Part shown: positions 10,750 through 26,124 of the stretch, one piece after another
Layout: each line of letters opens with the position of its first letter
Numbering within the stretch: position 1 is the first letter of the stretch
Source: an uncultured Aminicenantes bacterium
Lineage (GTDB): Bacteria > Acidobacteriota > Aminicenantia > UBA2199
Length of the DNA: 64,000 nucleotides
NCBI GenBank assembly: GCA_965195285.1
Contig: CBDAFS010000041.1
Span: 24,585 to 88,584 of the forward strand
Direction: 5' to 3'
Translations under genes and position numbers: made by a program
The notes under the pieces: generated by a model
The model's input: the letters and a program-made list of their open reading frames with translations, nothing else
Databases searched by the model: none
What the model was told of the DNA's origin: nothing

Positions 10750-11288
10750 ACATGAAACGACAATCATATATTTTCAGAATTGTTATGGTGATCGGTGCGG
10801 CCTGCTGGATGGCGTTTTCAGGAATCGGATGGGCAGGGGATACCGCTCCGGAGGCCATGCAAAAAATGGCACCCTTTATTGGAAAATGGAAAACGGTCTC
10901 CCTGTATCCGGAGCGGGGCTTGATGGTCCCGGGTCAACTGGAATATCGCTGGGTACTGGGAAAAAATTGGGTGCTGGTCATCTTCGAGGGGCAGCACCCG
11001 GAACGAAAATACTGGGAAGCCATTGCCATGATCAGGTATGATCCCGAAAAAAAATGTTATATATCACATGATTATTTCAACGAAAGGGATCCCGTTCTGA
11101 TGACCGGTTTTTGGATCAATTCCCGCACGATTCGCTTCGAGATAAGGGATGATAACGGGTCATCCGGGATCGATTACACGGTCAACCCAGACGGAAGCAT
11201 CTATCAGGAAAACTGGATCCTGCCCAAGGGCAAAGAGAGGAAAGTCACCCTGAAAACAGACTATACTCGATGTTTGCCAGATAATTAA
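10746..11288 (+). CDS. exported protein, DUF1579-like beta-barrel
   Basis: signal peptide; FIGKWK...W.LG..W...YDP pattern. Confidence 0.6.
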   Translation: MNMKRQSYIFRIVMVIGAACWMAFSGIGWAGDTAPEAMQKMAPFIGKWKTVSLYPERGLMVPGQLEYRWVLGKNWVLVIFEGQHPERKYWEAIAMIRYDPEKKCYISHDYFNERDPVLMTGFWINSRTIRFEIRDDNGSSGIDYTVNPDGSIYQENWILPKGKERKVTLKTDYTRCLPDN

Positions 11289-11350: not shown

Positions 11351-11709
11351 CTAATCGGATAATATTATTGAATTAATGATTACGGGCTTTCGCAAACATC
11401 TACTCCACTTTACCCAAAAATGCTCTCATTTTTGGGAGCGTTTCAGCATTTTTTGACATGCGAGAAAATGCTTTCACAAGCCGTTCCGGAGATGGTTTGC
11501 TACGCCCTGAATATATTTCTTTACCTTTTCCTCTATCTTTACCTAAGATTATGATCAATGAGCGTTGAACTGAATGTAAAGCCATGACCCCTATGAGGGA
11601 TGTTTCACATCACCCGGAGGGTGAAGGATTTCCAAAAAAACCTATAAAAAGGTTGAAATTATTATCTTGATCTTTATAATAATTGTATTGAGACTTGAGG
11701 AGGTCAAAT

Positions 11710-11880
11710 ATGAAGCTTAATGCACCCAAAAAAATGGTATGGTTTCTATCATTAATTTTAGCCATTATCAGTATTGTTGCTTATTTTGTGGTCATTCCGG
11801 TGATCACCGGAATTACCTTCTGGGTAATGGTTGCAGCCTGGCTCTTGCTGTTTCTGGCTACTTTTCTAAAAGGTTTTTAG
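11710..11880 (+). CDS. small two-TM membrane protein
   Basis: GGAGG RBS; MKLNAPKK followed by two hydrophobic helices; promoter-like TTGAAA-N16-TATAAT at 11653-11680. Confidence 0.75.
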   Translation: MKLNAPKKMVWFLSLILAIISIVAYFVVIPVITGITFWVMVAAWLLLFLATFLKGF

Positions 11881-12017
11881 CCTTGGATTTGTTTATTAAC
11901 CAAGTAACGTAACCAAACGATCCGGGGAAAAACGGAAAAAACCGAATTTCCCCGGAGTCCTTTTAATGGAGTTAATTCCCTGAAACCTGAACTGGGTTTC
12001 TGGCCGGGGAAAAACCA

Positions 12018-12215
12018 ATGAAAATCCTGATCAATGACCAGATGATTGAAATATTTGAAGGTGCCCGTCTGCAAGATGCGGTTCGCAAATATTCCGAAAC
12101 AGAATTGAAACTGATCGAAAAAGAAGACAGAAAAATTGTTGACAGAGAGGGAAATCCCTTGGCCCTGGACGGAGAACTCTCAGATGGAGAATATTTTTAT
12201 ATTATAGAATGTTAA
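12018..12215 (+). CDS. small hypothetical protein, ThiS/ubiquitin-like start
   Basis: MKILINDQ.IEI..G..L.D...LDGELSDG. Confidence 0.55.
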   Translation: MKILINDQMIEIFEGARLQDAVRKYSETELKLIEKEDRKIVDREGNPLALDGELSDGEYFYIIEC

Positions 12216-12364
12216 AAAACAAGCCTTTTATTGCCTTTTGATTCCTACCCTTCTTGTCTGTAATACCCCATAAGTTTTCGGCTTCCGAGCAATTATAATA
12301 AAACTGCTATGAAGACGATAACAATAAAGTGATCCAATACCGGATCATTCAGAAGGAGATAAAA

Positions 12365-12658
12365 TTATTTACTGACTCGATCCTTTAGGGTTTTTCCGGC
12401 TTTGAAGGTCACATAATTTTTGGCCGGAATCTGCATTTTCTGTCCGGTTTTTGGGTTAACTCCCATGCGGGCTTTCCGGGGAACAGTCTTAAAGGTTCCG
12501 AAACCGGGAATGGTGACTTTCTTTCCCGCATCAAGCTCAACCGCGATGATCCCTTTTCCGGATTTGGCATTAAAAATAGAATCAACGGCTGCCTCAGAAT
12601 CTTTTAAGGAAAGGCCGGTTTTTTTTGACAGTTTCTTAACAAGTTCTGTCTTGTTCAT
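12365..12658 (-). CDS. hup: HU family DNA-binding protein
   Basis: MNKTEL...GFGTF...ARMGVNPKTG...IPAK...FKAGKTLK; GGAGG RBS. Confidence 0.95.
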   Translation of the reverse strand: MNKTELVKKLSKKTGLSLKDSEAAVDSIFNAKSGKGIIAVELDAGKKVTIPGFGTFKTVPRKARMGVNPKTGQKMQIPAKNYVTFKAGKTLKDRVSK

Positions 12659-12859
12659 ATTTTTACCTCCGTGTATTTAAAAAAATAAAAAAAATCCTTA
12701 ACAATTGTCTTTCCCTGCTCCCCATGTTTCAATAAACAGGAAACAGTAAAATGTTTATTTTTACTTAATTCTTACTATAATAATAAAAGAAAAAACATTT
12801 TTTTCCAATAAAGAAAATTATTTTTTTAAAATTTTTAATGGGAAAAGGGATTATTCTTT

Positions 12860-13189
12860 CTATTTCTTGTCTTTTGTTTTCGTGTTGCAGATTTTGCAGG
12901 GGGTATAACCTTGCTTGATGGCCTCGGCAAGATTCATTTCCTTGGCATCTTTTTTGATCATATGGCAACCTTTCTTATGGTATTTTTTTTCGCTGGCATT
13001 GACCAACACTTTGGTTTCTTCCTGGGCAATGGGTTTGCAGACTTTGCAGGGGGTGTAGCCTTTCTTAACGGCCTCACTCAGAGTAACCCGGGTTTTCCCG
13101 GTTTTTACCAGGCTGCAATTTTTCTTGTGATATTTTTTTCCGCCCTCTTTTATATATACATAGGTTTCCGATGATTTTTTTAAAGCTGA
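12860..13189 (-). pseudogene. 5'-truncated protein with two tandem Ada-like metal-binding motifs
   Basis: own translation: KKYHKKNC..L.EAVKKGYTPCKVC and KKYHKKGC..LAEAIKQGYTPCKIC; no start codon before in-frame TAA at 13202-13204; absent from ORF track. Confidence 0.75.
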
Positions 13190-13213
13190 GGGGTCAAATC
13201 TTTATTATTGACA
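13190..13213 (+). repeat. GGGG(A/T)C boundary motif
   Basis: GGGGTCAAATCTTTATTATTGACA. Confidence 0.65.
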
Positions 13214-13231
13214 AATAGAAATGAATTAAGA

Positions 13232-13263
13232 CGCCTGGCAGGAGAACCATGGGTGACCCGGGA
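13232..13263 (-). repeat. tRNA-Arg 3' fragment, variant allele (copy A)
   Basis: + strand cgcctggcagg-agaaccatgggtga-cccggga. Confidence 0.85.
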
Positions 13264-13271
13264 ATAAAAAG

Positions 13272-14183
13272 TTACAGTCTCCTATTAATAACTTGAGCAA
13301 TGGCTTTGATATATTCAGGTCCCATCCGGCAACACCCGCCAATAATATCAGCCCCAAGATCCAGCCATTCATCAACCATCAATTGGCAAAATGATAAATC
13401 AGAAGAACCTGACCAGGTTTTACTGGCTGCATGGTATATTTCTCCGGAATTGGGATAAACCACCACTTTTTTATCACCCGATTTCTCTTTAATTGCCCTG
13501 ATCAATGGGGAAATTAAATTTGGTGCCGTACAATTGACACCAATAGCAAATACTCCTGGGTGAGAAGCAAAAAATGCAGCACAATCCTCTATGGGAGTTC
13601 CGTCATTCAGATGGCATTCATCTTTACAGGAGAAAGACACCCAGGCCTGTTTTTTGGTATTCTTCAGGATTTCCGCCAATACCCTGGCTTCCTGAAAGCT
13701 TGGCATGGTCTCACAGGCAAAAAAATCTGCTCCCGACGTATCCAACAACTCAATTCTCGGTTGGTGAAATTCTGTAAGTTCCTCATCGGATAAACCGTAA
13801 TGACCGCTATATTCCGAGCCATCAGACATAAAAGCGCCATATGGTCCAATACTGGCTGCCACCAGAGGCGAATAACTATTGGGTTGTGATGCCTCAAAAT
13901 CTTTTATTGCCTCCTGGGCAAGGGTAACCGATTTTAGAATTAATGTTTCGGCTGTAGCCCGATCATGACCCAGAGCCAAAAAACCCGGAATGCTGGCCTG
14001 GTAGCTGGAAGTGATGATGCATCGTGCACCCGTTTTTAGGTAAGCTAAATGGGCTTGCTTGATGGCCTCGGGATTAGAATCCAACAATCTGGCAGACCAT
14101 AACCAATGATTCAGGTCACATCCCTGACTTTCCAGCTGGTTTGAGAGACCACCGTCTATCAATAATGGATATTTGATGTTCAT
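13272..14183 (-). CDS. mmuM: homocysteine S-methyltransferase
   Basis: IDGGL, ASIGPYG, GVNC, VYPNSGE and IIGGCCR motifs. Confidence 0.93.
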   Translation of the reverse strand: MNIKYPLLIDGGLSNQLESQGCDLNHWLWSARLLDSNPEAIKQAHLAYLKTGARCIITSSYQASIPGFLALGHDRATAETLILKSVTLAQEAIKDFEASQPNSYSPLVAASIGPYGAFMSDGSEYSGHYGLSDEELTEFHQPRIELLDTSGADFFACETMPSFQEARVLAEILKNTKKQAWVSFSCKDECHLNDGTPIEDCAAFFASHPGVFAIGVNCTAPNLISPLIRAIKEKSGDKKVVVYPNSGEIYHAASKTWSGSSDLSFCQLMVDEWLDLGADIIGGCCRMGPEYIKAIAQVINRRL

Positions 14184-14221
14184 TTGATTACAAAGAGTTT
14201 ATTAAAATTTTTCAAAAATTT

Positions 14222-14273
14222 TTGACACAAATTTGACACAAATCAAAAATGTGGCAATGCAAGACCTGACCCC
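14222..14273. repeat. GACACAA doublet plus reverse GGGGTC boundary motif
   Basis: TTGACACAAATTTGACACAA (14222-14241); reverse GGGGTCAGGTCTTGCATTGCCACA (14250-14273); paralogous to 16269-16322. Confidence 0.8.
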
Positions 14274-14284
14274 ATTTATTTTTT

Positions 14285-14836
14285 TTAGTTGGGAACAGCT
14301 AATCCTCTTAACTTCCCTCCATTATCTCCCAGGATTATTGAAAAAAGAACACATATACCATTTAGGATCAAATACAACCATAAAGCCAAAGGAGCTTGGA
14401 ACATGATCAATAAGGCCAGGATTGAGGAGAGGAGAAAAAAGAGTATGGCTACGGTGATCTTTAATTTTAAAATAGGGGTGTTTAATTTTTTAAATTGGGT
14501 TTTACCAACCAATAATCCGGTTATTATTGCCCCTAATACCGATAAGGGTAAAAGAACTGAAAGAACCTGGCTGCACGATAAAAGATTGAATGGGCAAGGA
14601 AAAAACAAGATCAGGTGAAAGAACAGTAATCCCAAAATAATAACTGCAATTGCCTGGGGAAAATGAACCACCATAGAATGGAGATTTAAATCAAGAATTT
14701 TCCTCCTCTTTTCGGAAACTTTGTCATTATACCCTTCAAAGGCGTTTTTTGAAACTCCACAGGCAGGACAAAATTCCCCTAGTTTATGTTGATCAATAAT
14801 AAATCCGCAGACTTTACAAATAACTTTATTTTTCAT
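14285..14836 (-). CDS. rubredoxin-like CxxC domain fused to DUF2231-like membrane domain
   Basis: CKVCG...CPACG, then HSMVVHFP and four TM segments. Confidence 0.8.
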   Translation of the reverse strand: MKNKVICKVCGFIIDQHKLGEFCPACGVSKNAFEGYNDKVSEKRRKILDLNLHSMVVHFPQAIAVIILGLLFFHLILFFPCPFNLLSCSQVLSVLLPLSVLGAIITGLLVGKTQFKKLNTPILKLKITVAILFFLLSSILALLIMFQAPLALWLYLILNGICVLFSIILGDNGGKLRGLAVPN

Positions 14837-14932
14837 CTCTCCTCCTATTTATTGTCTGAAATAGTAAATGATTCAAGATTCTTTTGCAAGTAAGTAAAAG
14901 TAATAAGGGGTGTAAAATTTAGGAGTGTAAGG

Positions 14933-15028
14933 GGTGATATTGTTTGACAGTGTGACATTTATTTTTACAGCAGTTAGGAAAAGTAATTTAAAGGGTGAGG
15001 GAACCTGCACCTGGCAGGGATCGAACCT
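14933..15028 (+). repeat. about 100-bp spacer repeat ending in tRNA-Arg 3' fragment with native T-loop (copy B)
   Basis: TTGACAGTGTGACATTTATTTTTACAGCAGT...cctggcagggatcgaacct; paralogous to 16056-16171 and 24030-24140. Confidence 0.9.
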
Positions 15029-15066
15029 TTTTTTTATTTTTATTTAAAAAAAACGATAAGTGGATT

Positions 15067-15936
15067 TCAATACTTCAAAAGACCGTCCCTTTTTGTCCCT
15101 TTTTGTCTTTTTGTAATATGACGCTCTAGACTGGATATGAATTTTTGTAATCCTGCGATATAAAGTTGTTCTGAAAGGATAACCCCTTCATTGTGACTCC
15201 CTCTAATTGAGAGAAATTCTTTGGGGGAACGTGCAGAATCATAGAGTTTTTGACCGTTGCTATAGGAAATGATCTCATCATCCCGGCTATGAATAATCAG
15301 CACCGGGCAGTTGATTTTTTTTAAGTATTTTGATGTGTTATATTTAAAATGGGATAAAAGTTTAACTGGAAAAATCGGATATAGTTTTGCCCCCAACTCA
15401 GGGATTGAAGTAAAAGAAGATTCAACGATTAATCCTCTGGGATTATATTTTTGAGCTAGCCAGGCTGCTATTGATCCTCCCAGGGAGCGGCCAAAAACAA
15501 TTATTTTATTGTTTGAAATCTTTAATTCATTTACCAGATAATTCCAGGCTGCCTCTGCATCCAGATATGTGCCCTTTTCAGTGGTTCGACCTTCACTCTG
15601 ACCGTATCCTCGATAATCGAATATGAAGGTGTTTAATTGAAGATGATGAAAAATTTTAATAGATTCGAGTCGATGGGAAATATTCCCGGCATTTCCATGA
15701 CAGAATAAAATAGTTGCCTTTGGTTTTTTAGTGGGAATAAACCAGGCAGAAATTAACACATCATCAGAGGTTTTATAACATATTTCTTGATATTCCAGAT
15801 TAATGCTTTTTGGGGTTTGCAAAATATCTCTTTTTGGAAAATAAACAAACCTGGATTGAAAGAAAAAAAGGTAGGCAACTAATACTATGTATATAAAAGC
15901 TGCTGAGATTACAATAGTAAAAAAAAATCGGGACAT
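15067..15936 (-). CDS. alpha/beta hydrolase (ABHD13/YfhR-like)
   Basis: N-terminal TM; HGNAG, DYRGYG, GRSLGG, HSRDDEI and GSHN motifs. Confidence 0.9.
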   Translation of the reverse strand: MSRFFFTIVISAAFIYIVLVAYLFFFQSRFVYFPKRDILQTPKSINLEYQEICYKTSDDVLISAWFIPTKKPKATILFCHGNAGNISHRLESIKIFHHLQLNTFIFDYRGYGQSEGRTTEKGTYLDAEAAWNYLVNELKISNNKIIVFGRSLGGSIAAWLAQKYNPRGLIVESSFTSIPELGAKLYPIFPVKLLSHFKYNTSKYLKKINCPVLIIHSRDDEIISYSNGQKLYDSARSPKEFLSIRGSHNEGVILSEQLYIAGLQKFISSLERHITKRQKGTKRDGLLKY

Positions 15937-16055
15937 TGAATTTACCGTCAACTTAAAAAAATAATTTTACCAAATCAATAATAATAATATCTTTTGATAT
16001 TATATCAGGAAAAATGAGTTGTTGCCAAAGAAACATAGAAAAATCGAGAAAAATC

Positions 16056-16171
16056 GGGGACGTTGCTTGACAGTGTGACATTTGTTTTTACAGCAGTGAG
16101 GAAAAGGTGTTTTAAAGGGGTAGGGGAAAACGCGCCTGGCAGGGAAACCATGGGTGGACCGGGATTAGGAA
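16056..16171 (+). repeat. spacer repeat with variant tRNA-Arg 3' fragment (copy C)
   Basis: GGGGACGTTGCTTGACAGTGTGACA...cgcgcctggcagg-gaaaccatgggtgg-accgggattaggaa. Confidence 0.92.
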
Positions 16172-16268
16172 AACTATGTCCCAAAAAAAGAAAACCCTGA
16201 ATTATCAATACTATACAACGTTTTCAGGATTTCAAAGTTGAAAATTTGTGAAAAATTTTGTAAATATT

Positions 16269-16322
16269 TTGGCACAAATCTGGCACAATTATACAAAATG
16301 TAGCAATGCAAGTCTTGCCCTC
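16269..16322. repeat. GGCACAA doublet plus reverse boundary motif
   Basis: TTGGCACAAATCTGGCACAA; reverse GAGGGCAAGACTTGCATTGCTACA. Confidence 0.78.
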
Positions 16323-16448
16323 ATCGATTTTTTCTCCTGGATTGAAGGTAGATTTTTTTTTGGATTTATCATGAGAATTTTGTAAATTTACAATAAAAAT
16401 TCCAACTTTTTTAAGTTTTTTCGTAATAATAAATAGGGAAGAACCAAA

Positions 16449-17618
16449 ATGAAGTATCTATTTATGAAGAAGATAATGATGTTGATCATTTTTATTGTAA
16501 TGACCTCTGTTTCCTGTGATAAAACCAATGATGAATGGGTCTATTCAGTGCCGGTAAATCACAACGATGGCTGGGAGACCGCTTCTGTGGAGGATGTCGG
16601 AATCAGTCTACAACCTCTCACTTCAATGATGAATTATTACAACACAATAGAACACAAGATCCACTCCATCCTGATTGTTAAAAACGGCAAACTTGTTTTT
16701 GAAGAGTATTTTCCGGGATATACTGTTGGCAGCAGCAGTAATGATTTTGAGGGGGATTACGTCACTTTTTCCTGGGATAGGGTTCATATAACGTGTTCGG
16801 TCACCAAAAGTTTTACCTCTGCTCTGGTAGGGATCGCCATTGACAAAAAATTTATCAAAAATGAGAAGGTAACCATTTTTTCCTATTTCCCGGATTACAG
16901 CCACTTACAGGATAAGCAGAAAAACAAGATCACCATTGAACATCTGGTGACCATGACTGCAGGCCTGGAATGGGATGACAGTGAAGGCCCTGAATCAGAC
17001 AGGAACCAAATATGGCAGGAGTCAGATCCCATTGGATTCATTCTTGACCGGCCGGTGGTGGATGAACCAGGCACAGTTTATTTATATTCCGGTGGAAATA
17101 TCAACCTGGCCGGGGAGATCATTAAACGGGCCAGCGGGCTGGATGCTTCTGCCTTTTCCGGGGAACATCTGTTTAATCATCTGGGAGTTACCCAGTTCCA
17201 GTGGGGATATTATCAAAACAATGTTGTTCACTGCTCAGGTGACCTGTTTATCACCCCTCGCACTATGGCAAAATTCGGCACCCTTTTTCTCAATAAAGGG
17301 ATCTGGAAGAACACACGGATTATTTCAGAACAGTGGATAAACAAATCAGTATCCCCATATATTCAACTACCTCAGCCCAATAATTCTGTAACTCCTGCTG
17401 ACTCCTATGGTTATGCCTGGTGGATCTATGATTACGAATTGGATGGCGGTTATAAGGTCCATTCCTATTCAGCCCGGGGTAGGGGCGGGCAGGATATCAT
17501 CATGCTCCCGGTCCTGGATACAGTAGTTGTATTTACCCAGGGATATTACCTCACCCATTATCATCAGGCACAACATATTATGGATCGTTACATTCTGAAA
17601 GCAATTTTAAATATTTAG
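16449..17618 (+). CDS. serine hydrolase, beta-lactamase class C-like, probable lipoprotein
   Basis: lipobox-like SVSC; SVTK (SxxK); HLVTMTAG; YLYSG. Confidence 0.88.
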   Translation: MKYLFMKKIMMLIIFIVMTSVSCDKTNDEWVYSVPVNHNDGWETASVEDVGISLQPLTSMMNYYNTIEHKIHSILIVKNGKLVFEEYFPGYTVGSSSNDFEGDYVTFSWDRVHITCSVTKSFTSALVGIAIDKKFIKNEKVTIFSYFPDYSHLQDKQKNKITIEHLVTMTAGLEWDDSEGPESDRNQIWQESDPIGFILDRPVVDEPGTVYLYSGGNINLAGEIIKRASGLDASAFSGEHLFNHLGVTQFQWGYYQNNVVHCSGDLFITPRTMAKFGTLFLNKGIWKNTRIISEQWINKSVSPYIQLPQPNNSVTPADSYGYAWWIYDYELDGGYKVHSYSARGRGGQDIIMLPVLDTVVVFTQGYYLTHYHQAQHIMDRYILKAILNI

Positions 17619-17737
17619 CTTAATGAAGATGCGATGAAAAAGGGGTCATATGGTGAGGGACGGTGCCTGACTTTATGACTTTATTGTCCATTCGATTAAG
17701 CATCATAAAATGGGGGCAGGTCACTTTGATAAAAATA

Positions 17738-17810
17738 CGCGCCTGGCAGGGATCGAACCTGCGGCACCGGGATTAGGAATCCCGCGCTCTATCCTCTGAG
17801 CTACAGGCGC
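17738..17810 (-). tRNA. tRNA-Arg(CCT), intact
   Basis: GCGCCTGTAGCTCAGAGGATAGAGCG-CGGGA-TTCCTAA-TCCCG-GTGCC-GCAGGTTCGATCCCTGC-CAGGCGCG; extended -10 TGaTACAAT at 17819-17827. Confidence 0.96.
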
Positions 17811-17826
17811 ATGGAGAGATTGTATC

Positions 17827-17987
17827 AAAGGTAGAGGTAAAGGTAAAGGTTGAGGTTAAGGTTGAGGGGAAAACGTAAATCGTGAGTCGTAAGTCGTGAA
17901 TTGTAAGGCATTAGGGTAGGGGCGAATGGCAATTCGCCCTTTTTTATTGAATGGCTGTTATCCGGGCAAACCGTTGTTTGCCCCTAC
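17827..17987. repeat. hexamer/heptamer tandem tract followed by inverted pair of GTAG REP-like palindromes
   Basis: about 7 NNAGGT-type hexamers, AxxCGT(A/G) heptamers, GTAGGGGCGAATGGCAATTCGCCC at 17916 and reverse GTAGGGGCAAACAACGGTTTGCCC ending 17987. Confidence 0.75.
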
Positions 17988-18019
17988 ATGATTATAATTG
18001 TTTTGAGATTGATCAGCAC

Positions 18020-19279
18020 TTAAAAATAAAACCTGAATGATGTGTATACCATATCCGGGTAGGCGCCGAATTCAGAGTGGAGCAGGGGTGAATTCTCTTC
18101 AAGTGGGTTCGGAACATATTCGGGTTTTTTCCCCACTCCGATATAGGCCCCGGCAGCAATATAAATATTTTCGGCGATGTTGTATTCAACCTGAGGTGAA
18201 AATGAGAGGGACAAATCACTGAGATTGGCCAGCAGGAATCCGGTGGCGGTGATCAGCCCCGTGATCTGTTTGGTGATTCCCAGACCCAGATAGTGTTTTC
18301 CTAATAAATAAACCGCTCCGTCTCTGAATGCCGGTGAATCAAGGATGTTTAGATAGTTTTCGGCCTGATTTTCTCCGGCCGAACTGTAGTGGTATTCCAC
18401 AAATGTGTATACACCACCCCTGAAATTGAAATCAAGACCGAAAGAAGCTCTGAAGTACGGATCTTCCTTTTCCGGTTCCGAGTTGAAGAAATCCGGTGAC
18501 ACATAGGCCATCTCCAGCCAGATACTGGCGCCTCCGACTGCCCGTGACAGATCGAAACCGATCAGCAGGTTTTCTCTGAAGGACATCAGCAGCAGACTCA
18601 GGTCAGTCTTCAGCAGATAGGTCTTTCCCCTCAGGAAGAAGGCACTTTTATCGCCCCTGAAATCGTCACCGGCCACAAAGCCGATATCCAGTTCATCCAT
18701 CATGCCCAGCGGGATTCTCACCCTCAGGGCATCCACTCCGCGGCGTTCTTCGGTGTCCAGTTCGTTGAAGCTGAAGGGGGCTATAACATCTGTCGGATTG
18801 ATGATCCGGGCGCTTCCCCAGGCAATGGCCTGCCTCCCCAGAAAAATATCGCCGAATTTGAATTTAAGAGTAACATAAAAACGGTCCAGGTTTTGAAACA
18901 GCCCGAAACTTTCCGGAGTGATATCGGACCTGGGATAGATTTGAGAGGGAAAATCAGCAAACCGGTAGTCGAGCGGTTCGATTCCGAAGGAATAGATATC
19001 CTGATTGAAAAGACGTGAGTCCTGAATCCGGGGATAGATATCATAGGCCGTATGCAGCGAGAACCACTCGGCAGGTTTATACCTGATTTGAATCCGCAGC
19101 CGGTTATTGACCGCTCCCATATCCGGATCCTTCAGGCTTTCATCGCCCATCTGATAGCGGGGTTGAATAAGCAGGGTAGAAAAGTTTTTTACATAACCCG
19201 AAATTTCGAACGGATTTTCGGCTGAAGCAGGCAGGGCAATTAAAAGCAGGACAATCAGGATTTTCCAGGGACGTTGCAT
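18020..19279 (-). CDS. outer-membrane beta-barrel protein associated with LolCDE-like transporter
   Basis: signal peptide; LGRQAIAWG...NPTD..APF motif; C-terminal FRFYF. Confidence 0.7.
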   Translation of the reverse strand: MQRPWKILIVLLLIALPASAENPFEISGYVKNFSTLLIQPRYQMGDESLKDPDMGAVNNRLRIQIRYKPAEWFSLHTAYDIYPRIQDSRLFNQDIYSFGIEPLDYRFADFPSQIYPRSDITPESFGLFQNLDRFYVTLKFKFGDIFLGRQAIAWGSARIINPTDVIAPFSFNELDTEERRGVDALRVRIPLGMMDELDIGFVAGDDFRGDKSAFFLRGKTYLLKTDLSLLLMSFRENLLIGFDLSRAVGGASIWLEMAYVSPDFFNSEPEKEDPYFRASFGLDFNFRGGVYTFVEYHYSSAGENQAENYLNILDSPAFRDGAVYLLGKHYLGLGITKQITGLITATGFLLANLSDLSLSFSPQVEYNIAENIYIAAGAYIGVGKKPEYVPNPLEENSPLLHSEFGAYPDMVYTSFRFYF

Positions 19280-19289
19280 GTTGATCCGT

Positions 19290-19991
19290 CTATTTTTTGC
19301 GAATGTCCTCAGATATTTGACCGTCTTTCAGGGTGATCACCCGGGTGGCTTTTTCCATGACCATGGGGTCATGAGTGGAAAACAGAAAGGTCATTCCGGT
19401 GTTTTGATTCAGGGTGTGCATCATATCGATCAGGTTGGATCCGGTTTCCGAATCCAGATTGGCAGTCGGTTCATCAGCCAGAATAAGTGCTGGACGTGAG
19501 ACCATGGCCCGGGCGATGGCTACCCGCTGTTGTTGTCCGCCTGATAATTTGGGCGGGACTCGGCTCTCCATTTCAAGTAATCCTACCTGGTCCAGCATAT
19601 TCCTGACCCGTTCATGCCGTTCCTCTTTTTTTATCCCCTGCAGCATCATGATGTATTCAACATTTTCACGTACCGTGAGGACAGGGATAAGGTTGTAGGC
19701 CTGAAAAATAAATCCGATTTGATCCCGGCGAAAATCCGACAGCTGACGTCCGTTCATTTCAGATAGTGCATTTCCTTTCAACCATATTTTACCCGAGGTC
19801 GGGGTGTCCAATCCGGATATAATATTGAGCAGAGTGGTTTTTCCAGATCCGGAGGGTCCTACAATGGCCGTGAACTCACCGGGTCCTATGGTCAGATTGA
19901 CACCCCTGACCGCATGAACTTCCATGCCGTTATCCTGATAGGTTTTTTTCAGATCTTCTGTGATGATGATGAAATCATTTTGGCGATTCAT
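19290..19991 (-). CDS. ABC transporter ATP-binding protein (LolD/MacB-like)
   Basis: [16 protein letters not shown] and ADEPTANLD motifs. Confidence 0.95.
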
Positions 19992-20005
19992 GGTTGTTCC
20001 TCCTG

Positions 20006-21238
20006 TTATAGGCTACGACGGATGGCATCGGTTATTGACATGCGGGATGCCACTATTGCCGGATATATTCCCACCAGCAGGGTAAAAGCAAACAGCCCTG
20101 CGGGATAGATAATGAATTGATAGATTTTCATGACCGGATAGAGTAAATCATTGAAGGTGGTACCGGCAAATTCAATTCCCCGGTAATCGATTCCGGTCTG
20201 GGCCATGATTCCGGTAATAATCAGGCTTATAATAATGCCGATGACCGCACTGATTATTCCCAGAGAACCGGATTCGGCCAGCATCAGTTTAAACACTCCC
20301 CAGGGACGTGTTCCCACTGCTCTGAGAATACCGAATTCAAAGAGACGCTCATAAAGGGACATAAACAGGGTATTGATAATCCCGAATATGACCACGATAA
20401 TCAGCAGGAATGCCAGTATAACTTTGAATGCCCCGGTCATCTCAAACATGGTTTTGAGTTGGGGCAATAACTCCTCCCAGCTGATTGCTTTATTACCGTG
20501 ATCGGAGAAGGTTTTCCAGAAAGGGAGATCTTCTTGGGAGGCATATTTTAATTGGCTGAATTTTATAGCGATTTCGTGGACTTGGTCCCCGATTCCCAGC
20601 ATCTGCTGGGCAACTGGCAGGCGGATAAAGGCCATACCCTGGTCCATCTCTTTGATGGAAAAATGGTATATCCCGGAGACCCGGAACATTTCCTGGGAGA
20701 GATCTCCGCTGTGAGCGGTTGATACGGTTGCCACCAGTCGATCACCCAGTCCAATTTCAAGTATTTCAGCCAGTTTGCTGCCGATGACAATATCACGGGG
20801 ATTGGCTTCGGAGAAAAAATTTCCCTCTTTGATAGCGTCATCGATCTTGGAAATGGCTCTTTCTCTCTGGGGATCGATTCCCACCAGCAGAACGGAATTC
20901 ACATTGGCCGGAGAGGTGATCATGGCCATGGCCAGGGTGCGAGGACTGTAGCCTTCCACCAGGGGATCGGTTTTCAGGCCTTTGATCACCTCTTCTGATT
21001 GGTTGACGGTTAGAGTCGTATCGCGACTGGTTTGAAAACCCTCCCGGTGAATCTGGGCCTCTCCGATAAATGAATCGGTTGCCGAACGGATGGCCACATC
21101 TTCCATGCCGATAATCAGGCCGTCATAGAAGATCAGGCAGGCCAGGCCGATACCGATGGCAATTCCGGCGATGATGGTACGCCGCTTGTTGCGCAGAACG
21201 TTTCTCCAGGCAAGTTTGATATAAAACCACATAGTCAT
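20006..21238 (-). CDS. ABC transporter permease (LolE/FtsX-like)
   Basis: LAWRNVLRNKRRT; ERLFEFGILRAVG; AAGGAG RBS. Confidence 0.9.
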   Translation of the reverse strand: MTMWFYIKLAWRNVLRNKRRTIIAGIAIGIGLACLIFYDGLIIGMEDVAIRSATDSFIGEAQIHREGFQTSRDTTLTVNQSEEVIKGLKTDPLVEGYSPRTLAMAMITSPANVNSVLLVGIDPQRERAISKIDDAIKEGNFFSEANPRDIVIGSKLAEILEIGLGDRLVATVSTAHSGDLSQEMFRVSGIYHFSIKEMDQGMAFIRLPVAQQMLGIGDQVHEIAIKFSQLKYASQEDLPFWKTFSDHGNKAISWEELLPQLKTMFEMTGAFKVILAFLLIIVVIFGIINTLFMSLYERLFEFGILRAVGTRPWGVFKLMLAESGSLGIISAVIGIIISLIITGIMAQTGIDYRGIEFAGTTFNDLLYPVMKIYQFIIYPAGLFAFTLLVGIYPAIVASRMSITDAIRRSL

Positions 21239-21245
21239 TTCTCCT

Positions 21246-22466
21246 TTAATGTATCCGCATCGATTTTGCAGCATCGGTCCGGGCTGCTTTTAAAGCCGGA
21301 AGGAATCCCACCACAAGTGACGATATCAGGATGGTAATAGCCGGGATATAGAAGCTGCGGGCATTGATTTCCGCCTTGAAGGTGTCGAAGGTCATGCCGC
21401 CATAGGAAAACTCCATGCCCATATTGATGCCGTGGGTTGTCAGAATGCTGTTGATGATCCAGGCCATACCGAAACCGATAATGATCGAAAAGAAAGCCAT
21501 GATGTTGACCTCGGTCATGACCAGTTTAACGATTTGACTGGGCCGGGTGCCGATGGCTTTCAGTACCCCATACTCACGGGTTCGTTCCAGAACCGACATT
21601 AAAACCGTGTTCAATACGCCGACTGCCACGATCAATACGATGATCACCAGCGAGATCCACATACCTTCCATATCCGCCTTCATGGCCAGGTAGAAGGACC
21701 GGGCAAATACCTGCCAGGGATTGACCGACAGTTCAGGTCTGTTTATTAATGTTGAAATGGTATCGGTCATCGGTTTTACCTTATTCAGATGACCGATGTT
21801 AATGGCAATTTCATGGATCCGGTTTCCCAGTACCAGCAATTCCTGGGCATCTTGTATGTGTAGATAGAATGATATGCGATCTGACATCAGGTCGCCGGAA
21901 TCGACCAGACCTACTATGGTGTAGCGATCGTTGGCAATTGAACCATCGGCTCCCTGGGAGACAATGACAATGTCGTCCCGGACATCGGCATTGAGTAATT
22001 TGGCCAGCTCTTTTCCCAGCAGAACCTGATGGTCGGCACGGTTGGAGAAGTATTGTCCCTGGGAGACCTTTTTATGAAACTGGGTGGTCATTTGTTCGCG
22101 GGTTGGGTCGATACCGATGATGCGAACGCCGGCACTTTTTTCCTTGACCGAGACCAGACCGGCCGAATACACCCGGGGTGCAAACGAATCGATTTCAGTC
22201 AGTGTCTGAAGCTGATTTTGAATGCCTGAATAATCATTGATGGTTTTGTAGAGGGATGGACGGTCCAGGTAATGTTGTTCATGGATCTGGATGTGACCGA
22301 AGTTGTGGCGGGTAAAGTTATCGATGATATGGTTGTAGCTCCCATCGGCCCAGCCGATAAACACAGCAGCCATCACAAATCCGCCGAACATGCTCAAAAT
22401 GGTGAGAATGGTCCGGCGCTTCTGCCGAAAAATGTTGCGGAAAGCGATTTTAAGCAGCATGATCAA
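21246..22466 (-). CDS. ABC transporter permease (LolE/FtsX-like)
   Basis: IAFRNIFRQKRRT; ERTREYGVLKAIG. Confidence 0.9.
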   Translation of the reverse strand: MIMLLKIAFRNIFRQKRRTILTILSMFGGFVMAAVFIGWADGSYNHIIDNFTRHNFGHIQIHEQHYLDRPSLYKTINDYSGIQNQLQTLTEIDSFAPRVYSAGLVSVKEKSAGVRIIGIDPTREQMTTQFHKKVSQGQYFSNRADHQVLLGKELAKLLNADVRDDIVIVSQGADGSIANDRYTIVGLVDSGDLMSDRISFYLHIQDAQELLVLGNRIHEIAINIGHLNKVKPMTDTISTLINRPELSVNPWQVFARSFYLAMKADMEGMWISLVIIVLIVAVGVLNTVLMSVLERTREYGVLKAIGTRPSQIVKLVMTEVNIMAFFSIIIGFGMAWIINSILTTHGINMGMEFSYGGMTFDTFKAEINARSFYIPAITILISSLVVGFLPALKAARTDAAKSMRIH

Positions 22467-23227
22467 ATCCTTGAGCGCAGGTTTCTCAGACTAAAGGTGT
22501 CGTCCGGAATCTTGATGTCAAAGCGGGCTTCAATGTAGCGGACAAGCGTCCTGTTTCCCTCTTTATGGGTCGATATGAGTTCCATGACCGATGGTATGGT
22601 TCGGTCATCAAATGTTTTTATGCCCCGATAAACCATTTCTCGCATTAACTTTCCTCTTTCATCATAATATTTCTGCCAGACTGGAAGATAGTCATTTTTC
22701 CTGACAGCGATGATAACATATCCCCAAACGATTGGACGGTCCTTTTTGGGAATGCATTTGATATATATTTCCCCCGGCTTCGGATCGTCTATAGCTGTCA
22801 TTTCAAAATGGTAATCCTTGAGAAAGGTATATTCTTTAACCAGGTCGTCGTTGGTGAAATCCGAACCCATCCAGGAGCTCATCATCATCGAGGGTGGAAT
22901 TTTCATGACTTTATTGGTCTTGGGAAGAAAGTTCCACATTTCGTTTCCGATACGTAGTGTGGTCATGCCCTGTTCCTTTTTGGGTTCAAGAATGCGGATA
23001 AATGTATTTTCCGCTCCCTTACTCCAGATATTGATCTTTAGTGTCCGTTTCCAGTGGGGAGTAACGATTTCCATTTCAACCAGGGCCATGCTGGAATCAC
23101 TGCGATAAAGTTCATCTACTCTTCTCAATATTTCGATCGCATCCTGGGTTTGACCTGCACCCAGGGACGCCGAAGATATGAAACTGAAGAGGATGAAACA
23201 CAATATAACTGCGATCGATGCTTTCAT
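22463..23227 (-). CDS. outer-membrane lipoprotein-sorting protein (LolA-like)
   Basis: WMGSDFTNDDL; C-terminal FSLRNL. Confidence 0.88.
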   Translation of the reverse strand: MKASIAVILCFILFSFISSASLGAGQTQDAIEILRRVDELYRSDSSMALVEMEIVTPHWKRTLKINIWSKGAENTFIRILEPKKEQGMTTLRIGNEMWNFLPKTNKVMKIPPSMMMSSWMGSDFTNDDLVKEYTFLKDYHFEMTAIDDPKPGEIYIKCIPKKDRPIVWGYVIIAVRKNDYLPVWQKYYDERGKLMREMVYRGIKTFDDRTIPSVMELISTHKEGNRTLVRYIEARFDIKIPDDTFSLRNLRSRI

Positions 23228-23294
23228 GATTTTTCTCCTTGTAGATAAAATAAATTGAAAGGCAATCCTGATTTATATTTTTTTGACATTTGTT

Positions 23295-23912
23295 TCATCT
23301 TATGGAAATTCCCTCCAGAACCATACGAACCATCTCTTTCATGGTTTTGTCAAAATCAATGGTTTTATCCAAGAGCCACTGGACCATGATGCCATCATTC
23401 ATGCCCAGAATTATTATAGCCATGTTCTTGGCATCCAGGTCTTTTCTGAAACTGCCTTCTCTGATTCCATCTTTTATCAGGTCCTCACACAATTTTCTGT
23501 AGGCCTGGTAAAAGATGTTCATTTCCTTGAACAGGATGTTTTTTGCCTGAATGTTTTTGATGCTCTCCGCCCAGAAATCAAATATCAATTCCATGAGTTG
23601 CCTGTTTTCGGGTAATTGCATGGTTCGGGTAAAGGCATCGAAAACCTGCTTGAGTTTTTCAATGGAGGGGAGAGAGGATAGCAGGATCTCTTCAAAATCA
23701 AACTCGAGTTCTTTTATGAAAAAGTAAAAGGAATTATTAATGATTTCATCTTTGGTTTCGAAATAATCATAGATAGTACCCTTCCCGGTTCCGGCAGCTT
23801 CGGCAATATCACTGATAGTTGTGCGGGAAAATCCCTTTTGGGCAAATAATTTGATGGCTGCCCTGATAATCAATTCCTTTTTTTCTTTTTTATCAACAAT
23901 TTTTGCGCTCAT
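23295..23912 (-). CDS. TetR/AcrR family regulator
   Basis: AAIKLFAQKGF..TTISDIAEAAGTGKGTIYDYFETKDEI. Confidence 0.93.
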   Translation of the reverse strand: MSAKIVDKKEKKELIIRAAIKLFAQKGFSRTTISDIAEAAGTGKGTIYDYFETKDEIINNSFYFFIKELEFDFEEILLSSLPSIEKLKQVFDAFTRTMQLPENRQLMELIFDFWAESIKNIQAKNILFKEMNIFYQAYRKLCEDLIKDGIREGSFRKDLDAKNMAIIILGMNDGIMVQWLLDKTIDFDKTMKEMVRMVLEGISIR

Positions 23913-23922
23913 TGTATTTATT

Positions 23923-23942
23923 ATGACCGACTGGTCGGTCAT
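23923..23942. promoter_or_regulatory. probable TetR operator
   Basis: ATGACCGAC-TG-GTCGGTCAT, 9-bp perfect arms just upstream of the TetR start. Confidence 0.75.
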
Positions 23943-24029
23943 TTATACCATTGTGATATTAAATGTGAAATATTTCAAGTGAAAATTGAAAAAAAATATA
24001 TTTATTAGAAAAAGAAAATAAAAAAAGGA

Positions 24030-24172
24030 GTGGACGTTGCTTGACAGTGTGACATTTTGTTTTTTATTTGATTTAGGGAAAGAATTTAAAAGAGTAGGGG
24101 AAACGCGCCTGGCAGGAGAACCATGGGTGGCACCGGGATTCTTAATGAATGCAAAATATAAGACCTGATCCC
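24030..24172 (+). repeat. spacer repeat with variant tRNA-Arg fragment (copy D) and reverse GGGATCAGGTCT motif
   Basis: GTGGACGTTGCTTGACAGTGTGACA...cgcgcctggcagg-agaaccatgggtgg-caccgggatt...agacctgatccc. Confidence 0.9.
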
Positions 24173-24220
24173 AATATTACAATATTAACTAAATGTCGAG
24201 ATCAGATAAAAATATTTATT

Positions 24221-25768
24221 TTAAACTCTTTTTGGAAGTTTTTGTCCTGATGGAGTCATAGCCAGACCCCCAAGAGCCGTACAACGTAGCTCTGATGGCA
24301 ACATTTTCCCGACTGAATATACGGCATCAATGGTTTCATCCAGAGGAATGGGATTTATATATCCGCCTAAAATAAGGTCAGCACAAACAAATGCCGAAGA
24401 GGCAGCTACTGCATTTCGGGTATGGCAGGGTATCTCACAGATCCCCTGGACAAGATCACAGACGGAACCCATTGTATTCTGAAAAGCGATGGCTGCAGAA
24501 TCACAGGCTTGTTTGGCATTTCCGCCTGCACTTTCGATAACAGCAGCTGCAGCCATGGCGCCGGCTGTTCCGATTTCCACCTGACATCCGGCAATTTCAG
24601 CAGCAAAAGTGGCTCGCCTGGCAACAATTAAACCGATAGCAGAGGCGGCAAACAAAGCCCGGGCTATTTGTTTGGGTTTCATTTTTTTTTCATCAGCCAG
24701 AGAGGTGATCACTCCGGGGATAGTTCCTGCCGAGCCTCCGGTTGGGGCCGCACAAACAATTCCCATACTGTTATTAATATGCATCACGGCCATAGCTCTG
24801 GCTGCAGCCCGAGTATGAAGACCGCCTATGGCAAGGCCCCCCATATTCTCCTTTCTGATTATTTCAGAAGCAGTCGGTTGCAGGAGCTGCATCTGGACAT
24901 TATTTATATCAAGTCCCCGGTATACGGATTCCTGCATGATTCTATACCGGTAAATCATCTCGTCAAGAGCACTTTTTTTTGATATTCCGAGAAGATTCGC
25001 TTCATAAACCAGAGCAATTTCTCCCAATGATTGAGCTTGTTTTTCGGCCGTGCGGATCATTTCGCGGGCACTTACAAACAATTCTTTGCCTTTTTTGACT
25101 TTGAAAACTGGAGAAGTTGTCCAAATTTTTTTGATCCCTTCTAATGAATCTATTTTAATTTTATCTTTTTGGGATATTCGATTTTCAAATCGAGCTACAA
25201 TAACTTTCTCATTTTTCTGATCAGAAATATCAGGAGAATCTATTAGACCAGCCATTTTTTTTATTCGTGATATCAATTTCCTGGAATCTTTGTGGCAAAT
25301 AATTACATATTCTACTGCTTTGCCAGAGAGGAGGACGTTATAACCATTGAGACGGGTAATTTTGATCATTCCTCCTCCGATTGATTGGGCTTCGACAGTG
25401 AGTTTTTGATTGCTTTTTCCGGTTATTTCTATCAGTACAAAGTTGGGATGACTGGCCTGTTTCAATTCGGATATCTTGAAATTAATTTTCCAGCCTTTTT
25501 TTTCTGCTATTTTAAGGGCCTGAAAAAAAAGATCATCCGTTAAGGATAAACCAAGAAGCCCGCTTATCAGAGCAAGATCAACACCCTGTTCCCGGAAAAC
25601 CCGGGCATAAGAACTGTCGGGATCAAAAGTAAATTCAATTGCTGTTGGATCCTCTTCAATCATAGAATAAACCAGTCGGCCGATATGATAGGATCCGGCT
25701 GTATGAGAACTTGAAGGTCCCCGCATTACCGGACCCATTACATCATTGAAGATACTGATAAATACCAT
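24221..25768 (-). CDS. Fe-S L-serine dehydratase, fused beta and alpha subunits
   Basis: GPVMRGPSSSHTAG (beta); CAAPTGGSAG, GCQVEIG, CDLVQGICEIPC and ELRCTALGGLA (alpha). Confidence 0.88.
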   Translation of the reverse strand: MVFISIFNDVMGPVMRGPSSSHTAGSYHIGRLVYSMIEEDPTAIEFTFDPDSSYARVFREQGVDLALISGLLGLSLTDDLFFQALKIAEKKGWKINFKISELKQASHPNFVLIEITGKSNQKLTVEAQSIGGGMIKITRLNGYNVLLSGKAVEYVIICHKDSRKLISRIKKMAGLIDSPDISDQKNEKVIVARFENRISQKDKIKIDSLEGIKKIWTTSPVFKVKKGKELFVSAREMIRTAEKQAQSLGEIALVYEANLLGISKKSALDEMIYRYRIMQESVYRGLDINNVQMQLLQPTASEIIRKENMGGLAIGGLHTRAAARAMAVMHINNSMGIVCAAPTGGSAGTIPGVITSLADEKKMKPKQIARALFAASAIGLIVARRATFAAEIAGCQVEIGTAGAMAAAAVIESAGGNAKQACDSAAIAFQNTMGSVCDLVQGICEIPCHTRNAVAASSAFVCADLILGGYINPIPLDETIDAVYSVGKMLPSELRCTALGGLAMTPSGQKLPKRV

Positions 25769-25827
25769 GCTTTTGCCCGATAACAAGTTATCACAAAAGG
25801 ATTAAAAAGGAAATTAGTAAAAAAATC

Positions 25828-25919
25828 GGGATCAGGTCTCTTCATGACAAAAAAATGAAAAAATGAAAAAATGAAAAAATGGGGACGAAAAAATGGGGAC
25901 GGTGCTTGACTATTTGACT
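25828..25919 (+). repeat. GGGATCAGGTCT and GGGGACGGTGCTTGAC boundary motifs with AAAAAATG stutter
   Basis: 25828-25839 is the exact inverse of 24161-24172. Confidence 0.75.
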
Positions 25920-26052
25920 TTTTCAAATCTTCTTCCTGCTTCTGAAAAAGAACCTGTAAAAAAGTGGGGTGGATGCTTTAAAACCTGTTAATATCGAATA
26001 TTATGATTAAATAATCAACGTTGAACCTTGAACATTGAATGTGGAACTTAAA

Positions 26053-26124
26053 CGCGCCTGGCAGGAAAACCATGGGTGGACCGGGATTAGGGATCCCGCG
26101 CTCTATCCTCTGAGCTACAGGCGC
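26053..26124 (-). pseudogene. tRNA-Arg(CCT) near-full-length copy with disrupted T-arm (copy E)
   Basis: acceptor, D and anticodon stems identical to 17738-17810; U33 changed to C; T-arm replaced by CCACCCATGGTTTT. Confidence 0.85.

Follow-up and report, generated by a model that had tools for sequence, protein, structure and literature searches.

A compact array of small gene blocks at a tRNA-Arg(CCT) gene of an uncultured Aminicenantes bacterium: a candidate tandem-accretion island

The genome assembly of the uncultured Aminicenantes bacterium studied here (G000) comprises 3.28 Mb in 62 contigs. The window, that is, the whole stretch of 64,000 nucleotides (nt) that was analyzed, corresponds to G000:C41:24585-88584 on contig C41 (88.6 kb), and all coordinates given without a contig refer to it. 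Between positions 13232 and 26124 (approximately 13 kb), it holds an array of short gene blocks punctuated by minus-strand pieces of tRNA-Arg: an intact tRNA-Arg(CCT) gene, a pseudo-copy of full length and four fragments of the 3' part. The G+C content at 14-17 kb is 34-37%, compared with 45-50% in the surroundings, and 10 of the 11 open reading frames (ORFs) found between 13272 and 25786 lie on the minus strand, in the same direction as the tRNA pieces. The array was compared with 71 other genomes of the family. The same-genus genomes (G009, G010, and G011) are 70-91% complete and fragmented, and cargo genes absent from them are therefore reported as not found. To the left, synteny with relatives was too broken up for the far border of the array to be placed.

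The six tRNA copies, named A to F, were recovered with ARAGORN, Rfam, a repeat search and alignment, in agreement with the initial annotation, which had listed six co-oriented copies on the minus strand, one of them intact. The intact gene is copy D (17737-17811; 67.6 bits with Rfam), the sole CCT isoacceptor among the 47 tRNAs that ARAGORN found in the assembly. Copy F (26053-26124; 33.2 bits with the Rfam tRNA model) is a full-length pseudo-tRNA-Arg(CCT) with a C at loop position 33 and a variant T-arm, a region that the Rfam model skips. At permissive E-values, Rfam returned on the array just two tRNA hits and one spurious antisense match. Repeat search and alignment revealed three variant 3' fragments: copy A (13232-13268), located 3 nt past the stop codon of mmuM, copy C (16131-16169), which starts in the anticodon loop, and copy E (24104-24142), which starts in the anticodon stem. 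Copy B (15007-15030) is short and retains the native T-loop and the 3' strand of the acceptor stem, with 19 nt identical to tRNA positions 52-70.

Copies A, C, E, and F carry one common replacement in the T-arm (plus strand CCTGGCAGGRRAACCATGGGTG), as had been claimed. Its pattern matched four times in the window, with none expected (0 of 100 shuffles), and the genome-wide search proposed in the initial annotation gave the same four matches in the whole 3.28-Mb assembly, all inside the array. Compared with the native stretch, the variant is of equal length in copy E, as stated for all of them (14 nt), and one base shorter in copies C and F. It was not found in the other 71 genomes of the family, save for one hit with two mismatches that was taken as chance, and no stretch of the scanned viral contigs matched either its pattern or that of the conserved arm described below. 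A metagenome scan revealed it in three related contigs from outside the assembly, together with one unrelated coding hit. In these three contigs, the arm lies 5' of the variant and a GTTCAA-repeat flank lies 3' of it, which argues for a conserved allele instead of private decay. From the sequences compared, the variant is probably a shared derived feature of the tRNA copy on the element side.

The 11-nt acceptor block CGCCTGGCAGG, searched with at most one mismatch, matched eight times in the window (0.29 expected), and six of these matches are the tRNA copies. The only stretch common to all six is CCTGCCAGG(C/T)G, which makes it a candidate crossover region. Beyond the tRNA pieces, copies B, C, and E share a flank (83% identity between B and C over 63 nt; 76-85% over 41 nt for repeat family D2), while a flank with GTTCAA repeats (about 25990-26052) lies between copy F and its nearest family-1 repeat. 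The 3' flank of C and E is that of the tRNA in G010, and the 3' flank of F is that in G011. Native and variant T-arms each occur with both types of flank, as would be expected if exchange takes place between native and variant forms.

The conserved arm ("P-arm") is a sequence of approximately 120 nt located directly 5' of copy C (16174-16292, minus strand; nhmmer E = 8e-23 with a 10-copy profile). It combines a doublet (TTGTGCCA-N-TTGTGCCAAA) with a stretch rich in A+T and with a TGATAAT box that resembles a promoter. The profile detected five full copies in G000 (E from 2e-26 to 8e-23), and the arm precedes all four tRNA-Arg(TCG) fragments of this genome (E from 2e-26 to 6e-24). Partial arms were found before mmuM (14197-14245, minus strand, ending 13 nt before the start codon; E = 5e-8), on C31, and before a GIY-YIG gene on C15. 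In the same-genus genomes, the arm lies 5' of tRNA-Arg(CCT) 3' halves on several G011 contigs and also occurs on G009:C195, and on G010:C268 it is fused to a tRNA-Arg(CCG) fragment before a sulfatase gene that in G000 follows the intact tRNA. Judged by the order of its parts, this last arrangement is the layout of a plain attR. Altogether, arm-type modules occur at three tRNA-Arg genes (CCT, TCG, and CCG) in four genomes. A scan of the genome collection for the arm gave five stretches, three in the same-genus metagenome-assembled genomes and two in Pseudolactococcus, the latter taken as chance.

In G000, 3' halves of other tRNAs also exist that begin in the stem or loop of the anticodon and match their tRNA with 100% identity (Arg-TCG, in four copies, Thr-CGT, Glu, Ala, Val, and His), which suggests that integration at tRNA 3' halves is common in this genome. 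On contig C43, a 10.2-kb unit comprises tRNA-Arg(TCG), an ORF of 357 amino acids (aa) that belongs to no family, a 354-aa Phage_integrase protein, other genes, and finally an arm with a tRNA fragment, an order of genes that is, on sequence grounds, the anatomy of an integrated element. Since the CCT array shares the arm with this unit, its modules belong to a family with at least one integrase-bearing element. Viral contigs scanned with the C43 integrase protein gave three pattern hits, none of which was confirmed. A chimeric tRNA-like 3' piece was additionally observed on C43 after the second of the two modules that flank typA, a locus considered below. On C32, one gene for a 984-aa kinase lies exactly between two arm-fragment modules. 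As a separate observation, at least 10 Ser/Thr kinase paralogs exist (C32:26034-28988, C55:75572, C3:36277, and on C12, C15, C19, C25, C40, and C11; also G010:C185 and G011:C71), several of them directly downstream of a tRNA gene or fragment.

The cargo matched in Pfam only metabolic or transport genes. From left to right along the array, these are mmuM, encoding a homocysteine S-methyltransferase (13272-14183, minus strand; 2.9e-76); a membrane protein with an N-terminal rubredoxin-like zinc ribbon (14285-14836, minus strand; RUBY_RBDX, 1.6e-7); an alpha/beta hydrolase in a stretch of low G+C content (34%; 15067-15951, minus strand; Hydrolase_4, 1.9e-19); a serine hydrolase of the beta-lactamase fold (16449-17618; Beta-lactamase, 4.2e-29), encoded on the plus strand and thus the sole ORF opposed to the tRNA pieces; a block with a TetR regulator, a LolA-like protein, two MacB/FtsX permeases, an ABC ATPase, and a 419-aa protein of no family (18020-23942, minus strand; Pfam); and an L-serine dehydratase with fused alpha and beta domains (24221-25786, minus strand; SDH_alpha, 1.2e-56). 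The alpha/beta hydrolase and the serine dehydratase were found in none of the three same-genus genomes; the best hits of the former were 55% identical and came from other genera, and the best full-length hits of the latter in the family were 50-55% identical. By contrast with these absences, a copy of mmuM with 92% identity is present on G010:C368, there without a tRNA fragment after it, and the TetR-ABC block has a syntenic counterpart on G011:C71 (76% identity at the DNA level), which likewise stands before tRNA-Arg(CCT). In genus g17, two neighboring genes are distantly related (30-37% identity) to the hydrolase and the serine dehydratase of the array (G065:C3:522956-525446, and also G062:C128 and G060:C53). 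Left of junction A, a minus-strand open frame (12880-13150) with two copies of a Cys-rich repeat (YHKK..C...PCK.C) lacks an evident start codon and may be a gene that was cut short at this junction.

The surroundings of the tRNA differ among relatives. On G010:C185, a contig of the closest relative, the working tRNA adjoins tlpA, followed by a Ser/Thr kinase gene, and the 5' flank of copy F together with the tlpA side of the array is 94% identical to this contig, at the position of its intact tRNA. The 5' flank of copy D resembles instead those of G011 and G009. On G011:C71, the TetR-ABC block is followed by the tRNA, with a 5' flank like that of D, and then by a kinase gene, while in G009 the neighbor of the tRNA is the gene that the window has at 28786, with small genes, then the arm and a Y1 element coming after. 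The content of the array thus differs from that of the three same-genus genomes and also between samples which, with the co-orientation of 10 of the 11 ORFs, upholds the description of a tRNA-anchored, cassette-like array.

The independent check was made on contigs only, from runs of another study, X2 and X3 among them. These contigs reproduced all the junction flanks at even depth and broke only in the 27 nt that the 5' halves of D and F share; record 6 of X2 is unbroken over 17782-26122 and record 8 of X3 over 11800-14269. X2 has approximately 3.8 kb in place of 13181-13267 (copy A and a family-3 repeat), whereas X3 matches the window. The recurrence of the flanks at even depth and this difference indicate that a misassembly is unlikely and that junction A is naturally variable. 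Regions left uncovered in X4 and X5 were given no weight. An RNA library, which may hold DNA and whose contigs cannot show transcript ends, gave contigs over hup, 14830-15699, 17554-18040, and portions of the ABC operon.

Three families of short repeats lie at the junctions. Family 1 gave 41 hits in the genome (nhmmer profile, E ≤ 0.05) and consists of a conserved head, GGGGACGGTGC, and a direct doublet whose word differs between subfamilies; by inspection, no obvious palindrome was seen. Five copies, all on the plus strand, lie in the array on the 3' side of a tRNA piece: 14930-14965, 42 nt from B (E = 0.049; 83% identical to the flank of copy C); 16052-16089, 42 nt from C (E = 9.9e-8); 17655-17686, 50 nt from the intact tRNA, a weak copy of the CTGAC subtype (E = 0.0017); 24026-24062, 42 nt from E (E = 3.9e-7); and 25891-25926, 127 nt from F, with GGGGACGGTGC and the direct-repeat doublet (E = 3e-8). 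The flank of about 75 bp reported for three copies is real (B, C, and E), but its motif is not specific to the array. The flank and family-1 motif that follow copy F also follow tRNA-Arg pieces in G011 and in the metagenome contig L085, and family-1 copies abut the tRNA-Val and tRNA-His fragments as well. The flank of the G010 tRNA lacks the motif, though it is otherwise homologous.

On six contigs (C12, C21, C26, C27, C49, and C50), inverted pairs of family-1 repeats approximately 1 kb apart enclose 300-aa Y1 genes. One of the enclosed proteins matched Pfam Y1_Tnp (9e-8) and reached 62.6 bits with NCBIfam REP_Tyr_transpos, the REP-associated tyrosine transposase (RAYT) model, for which the cut-off is 80. 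The doublet word of the flanking repeats changes with the copy of the Y1 gene, which suggests matched subfamilies of transposase and repeat; these genes of about 300 aa also seem to have a C-terminal extension. Y1_Tnp gave 17 matches in the assembly, 16 of them above the Pfam cut-off (contigs C8, C9, C12, C14, C15, C21, C26, C27, C30, C31, C46, C47, C49, C50, C61, and C3). The family-2 repeat, GGGGTCAGGTCTTGCATTGC, flanks another Y1 gene on C3 and forms an inverted pair at C31:81039. It occurs in the window upstream of the partial arm before mmuM (14254-14271, minus strand), in a weaker, family-2-like form near the arm of copy C (16303-16320), and, as read from the sequence, in another such form (GGGATCAGGTCTT...; 24147-24172, minus strand) that abuts the 5' side of E, where copy C has the conserved arm. 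The family-3 repeat, GGGGTCAAATCTTTATTATTGACAA, lies beside copy A (13187-13217); identical copies, inverted, flank a Y1 transposase gene on G009:C195, and a family-3 element interrupts the arm in G009. In view of these arrangements, we read the repeats of the three families at the junctions as solo copies of repeats of IS200/RAYT-like Y1 transposases that would have colonized them later. Elsewhere in the window, the intergenic space between hup and the gene that ends at 11288 contains a repeat of approximately 125-150 nt (11383-11508) without a match in Rfam; about 10 copies of it are present in G000, and in G009 and G011 they number dozens. Two adjacent G+C-rich hairpins follow the ABC operon (17916-17987), and a similar hairpin is found at about 11330.

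Some tRNA fragments of this group of genomes contain inserts of two kinds. The T-loop insert is approximately 65-70 nt long, with two predicted hairpins. In G011, it is present with about 70 nt in three of the four arm-linked fragments (L060, L061, and L063). In G064, from another genus, three cargo-free tandem units of 112 nt that carry it stand right after the intact tRNA-Arg(CCT) (L111, 1448-1862 of G064:C1:389383-392407), and on G062:C131 (L115) it is found in a tRNA-Lys-like fragment. Of its 30 predicted pairs, four change on both sides yet stay paired, in a comparison that covers five sequences from three genomes and in which the outer pairs come from the T-stem of the tRNA. A phylum-wide pattern scan matched 8 of 401 genomes, all with two mismatches, together with three control hits, and only the match in G062 is related. 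A variant-bearing metagenome contig aligns along the arm and the flank with an insert-bearing unit of G011, the variant matching sub-blocks of the insert; the longest word shared by variant and insert is 7 nt, reached in 548 of 20000 shuffles (p about 0.03). With moderate confidence, the T-arm variant may be taken, from these alignments, as a collapsed form of the T-loop insert.

The second insert, distinct from the first, has approximately 85 nt and is located, with 97-100% identity, in the anticodon loop of three of the four tRNA-Arg(TCG) 3' fragments (C32:25830-25918, C32:29203-29302, and C43:62258-62357). Neither insert matched Rfam when the six insert-holding loci were searched at permissive E-values, and BLAST against the genome and the fetched loci found neither of them outside tRNA fragments. 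We had considered them as free-standing miniature elements and dropped this idea, since BLAST places both only inside tRNA fragments. A reading of an insert as a hammerhead was rejected by eye only.

In attention to the above, we consider, as on balance the probable explanation, that the array is an accretion island anchored at tRNA-Arg(CCT) and built by recombination of the tyrosine-integrase type, with the integrase lost or acting in trans and with repeats like those of the repetitive extragenic palindromic (REP) type arriving later. The anatomy of the array, its repeat families, the synteny and the variation are documented directly by the sequences. The recombination that we infer, its site and its enzyme included, would have been site-specific and repeated, at the 3' part of the tRNA-Arg(CCT) gene, each event adding a block and leaving an att-type (attachment-site) module formed by a doublet-bearing arm, part of a tRNA, and a flank. 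If the crossover lay in the acceptor block, the 5' region would be left free for variants or inserts, and native and variant T-arms could pair with both flanks; copy F would then need an extra deletion through short homology, or a conversion. If the site were instead the anticodon loop, F would be obtained directly, and C would need a resident site already bearing the variant. The recombinase would be gone because each block lost its own integrase, or an integrase located elsewhere, for instance that of C43, would have moved integrase-less blocks; we regard own-integrase loss and action in trans as about even. Copy F would be the old resident tRNA, broken by accretion, whose function copy D would now supply, and the repeats of families 1, 2, and 3 would have colonized the junctions afterwards.

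Several points weigh against this explanation. Under either crossover model, F and C are not both accounted for by a single step. No integrase was found on the 88.6-kb contig C41, either complete or in fragments (none of the six PF00589 matches of the genome), which likewise holds none of the 17 Y1_Tnp matches, and no serine recombinase was found in the genome; the initial annotation was thus right that there is no recombinase in cis, and the variant allele has no integrase or Y1 transposase linked to it on C41. Integrases of the C43 type were found in 3 of the 71 other family genomes, with 33-36% identity and none of them in the genus, and G009, G010, and G011 hold several arm-fragment modules but two Xer-like recombinases each. 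The full arm is present at one junction of the array only, that of copy C, and there are the partial arms before mmuM and before the GIY-YIG gene of C15, the latter with the appearance of a promoter. Furthermore, typA, a single-copy housekeeping gene, lies between two modules of arm and tRNA-Arg(TCG) fragment (C43:59497-62395), so that a pair of modules is not always a sign of foreign DNA, and judging from its synteny with G011 the TetR-ABC-tRNA block may be native rather than cargo. In addition, 5 of the 41 family-1 hits lie within 13 kb, co-oriented and each 42-127 nt from a tRNA piece, a positional regularity greater than random colonization predicts, although the copies at B, C, and E are parts of one duplicated unit, which reduces the independent placements from five to three. 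Finally, no circle, empty site or excision joint was seen in the material available, which consisted of contigs only, with long-range joints whose sides at repeats have 21-39 letters. Joints of this kind that link distant repeats in X5 and X3 (sides of 21-39 letters, likeness ≥90) were not trusted as evidence of excision.

In another account, the array would have arisen without any current activity of mobile elements, by segmental duplication, deletion through short homology and homologous exchange with related strains between the repeated tRNA and REP-like sequences, among mostly native genes. Each of the two contexts, tlpA-tRNA and TetR-ABC-tRNA, is the native one in some relative, mmuM is also present in G010, and copy F can be derived by a deletion between the 15-17 nt common to the tRNA and a downstream fragment; the typA locus and the density of repeats in the array agree with this as well. 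We nevertheless consider it unlikely, given that it leaves unexplained why, in four genomes, the arm stands beside fragments of three tRNA-Arg genes, the existence of a unit that has this arm together with an integrase, and the low G+C content and patchy spread of the hydrolase and the serine dehydratase.

It must also be considered whether the modules form a system of their own. In one form of this idea, a cassette system driven in trans would work at tRNA genes in the Aminicenantes of this family with integrase-less single-gene units, the site being the doublet arm, with its outward promoter, and the tRNA 3' half; the conserved, structured element of 65-85 nt in the T-loop or anticodon loop would be no scar but the folded part of the site that serves recognition or regulation, with a role like that of attC, and the variant of the window would be its minimal form. 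We regard this as rather unlikely. Quite improbable, in our opinion, is a dedicated capture platform in which tRNA-Arg would act as the attI of an integron, a recombinase in trans inserting promoterless genes with copied composite sites and the tRNA or arm providing the promoter. The blocks are indeed single genes or one operon, nearly all co-oriented with the tRNA pieces, similar single-gene units exist on C32 (kinase) and G010:C268 (sulfatase), the variant module is kept in the three outside metagenome contigs, the promoter-like box of the arm points into the fragment and the downstream gene, and one RNA-library contig (14830-15699) extends over the hydrolase and copy B into the beginning of the following gene, with the caveat on DNA given above. 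Nevertheless, no integron-type integrase was found beside the array, no imperfect palindrome common to the six spacers was found, the spacers are heterogeneous, with the arm at one of six and three types of flank, and much of the supposed site corresponds to genome-wide repeats associated with transposases. Ordinary tandem accretion fits all these features too.

The Y1 (HUH) transposases could themselves have been the driver, the repeats of families 1, 2, and 3 being their recognition ends and the tRNA pieces and genes being carried or duplicated by single-strand or one-ended events. The abundance of Y1_Tnp matches, the six Y1 genes flanked by inverted family-1 pairs, the placement of five family-1 copies in the array, those abutting the tRNA-Val and tRNA-His fragments, and the family-3 element that cuts the arm in G009 are in line with it. 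We hold it to be quite unlikely, because the arm-fragment modules of Arg-TCG have no family-1 motif in a fixed position, the flank in G010 lacks the motif, the independent placements are three, and there is no Y1 gene on C41. Moreover, duplication of adjoining tRNA segments, or use of tRNA 3' ends, is not known for elements of the IS200/IS605 type.

A reading of the modules as working RNA signals, in which the arm would be a promoter and the partial tRNA, together with the variant or insert that it carries, a leader, processing site or terminator for the neighboring genes, is highly unlikely in our judgment. It agrees with the partial arms located directly before the start codons of mmuM and the GIY-YIG gene, with the co-orientation of fragments and downstream genes, with the paired changes that keep the hairpins of the T-loop insert, and with the three cargo-free tandem units right after the tRNA in G064. 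It finds no support in Rfam families nor in single-sequence folds of leader and fragment, which gave no common structure; the covariation comes from few sequences, with outer pairs inherited from the T-stem, and copy C is not covered by the RNA contigs. Lastly, a chimeric metagenome contig joined through tRNA repeats is scarcely credible: the source is a metagenome-assembled genome, the contigs of other runs break in the tRNA 5' half shared by D and F, and the block order across this repeat is not independently proven, but X2 record 6 and X3 record 8 are unbroken, the contigs of the other study repeat every junction flank at even depth, and the tRNA copies differ from one another, so that they are not collapsed repeats.

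Two described cases come closest to the accretion island that we favor. In Dehalococcoides, according to the part of the report on which we draw (PMC3146451), genomic islands stand in tandem at the ssrA gene, encoding transfer-messenger RNA (tmRNA), and 15 units without integration modules have been read as cis-mobilizable elements. As in the array, one RNA gene anchors a run of islands with direct repeats of the 3' end of the gene, a short conserved motif not belonging to the RNA gene lies beside the repeat, insertion takes place near the T-loop, many units have no recombinase, and there is low G+C content and strain variation. The differences, as far as that part of the report extends, are that 16 of the ssrA units carry a serine recombinase, while the array has none and the sole candidate family is of the tyrosine type and located elsewhere; that the units of the array are much smaller, often with one gene; and that its repeat has the T-arm variant, with transposase-associated repeats at the junctions. 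Regarding the features of tandem islands in general, the array is anchored at one of its ends by an RNA gene, its blocks are separated by direct repeats of the 3' part of that gene, its content is variable and its composition is atypical. Units with a recombinase are absent from it; such a unit does occur on C43, in the sister array at tRNA-Arg(TCG), whose arm is the same.

The islands of Prochlorococcus anchored at tRNA genes, through which partial tRNAs are scattered according to the part of a preprint considered here (10.1101/2020.12.28.424599), are another counterpart. These islands, which tycheposons remodel, also lie beside tRNA genes, tRNA-Arg included, with metabolic cargo, and their successive integrations push older material inward and leave partial tRNAs and decayed remains. 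Tycheposons are nevertheless defined by a recombinase and a replication module, whereas no recombinase is present on C41 and the Pfam hits of the cargo are restricted to metabolism and transport; they belong to another phylum, and in that part of the preprint the arm and the T-loop insert have no counterpart (10.1101/2020.12.28.424599). The repeats of the junctions can be compared with REP and RAYT systems, described in the relevant section of PMC5581495 as a short extragenic repeat, inverted about a Y1 (HUH) transposase gene and scattered as solo copies, with RAYTs that are typically single-copy. Families 1 (on six contigs) and 3 (on G009:C195) are likewise inverted around Y1 genes; unlike the systems portrayed there, the Y1 transposase is multicopy, with 16 matches above the cut-off, and scores below the NCBIfam cut-off for RAYTs.

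With integrons, the array has in common co-oriented small cassettes, repeated sites of recombination type between them and a possible promoter at the anchor, which in this case is a tRNA gene; neither an intI gene nor attI was found. An inverted-repeat scan of the six spacers, in which no attC covariance model was used, gave only A+T-rich or unrelated pairs with no shared design. The proposal of an undescribed, integron-like system made in the initial annotation is therefore retained in part. The tRNA-anchored array without a recombinase in cis stands. The integron hallmarks are not supported, as no integron integrase was found and the scan of the spacers gave no shared palindromic site like attC, and neither is the composite spacer conceived as one purpose-built unit, which is rather a mix of att-type remains, solo repeats associated with Y1 genes, and the T-arm variant. 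The novelty of the system does not hold either, for tandem islands at tRNA and tmRNA genes with integrase-less units have already been described, as the consulted parts of both reports make clear (PMC3146451; 10.1101/2020.12.28.424599). This mode of island building is known, and what distinguishes the present case is that it is unusually compact and has no recombinase gene.

The inserts inside tRNA fragments are the part most worth following, given that a structured insert confined to such fragments, whose pairs change together from genus to genus, offers a concrete lead towards a novel motif of RNA or DNA. As to the organism, the array shows an uncultured sediment Aminicenantes shuffling small metabolic genes, namely those for a homocysteine methyltransferase, a serine dehydratase, hydrolases, and an ABC system of the efflux type, at a tRNA hotspot with no recombinase on site. 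If it is true that the units move in trans, this would represent a compact route of gene flow in a phylum whose mobile elements are poorly known.

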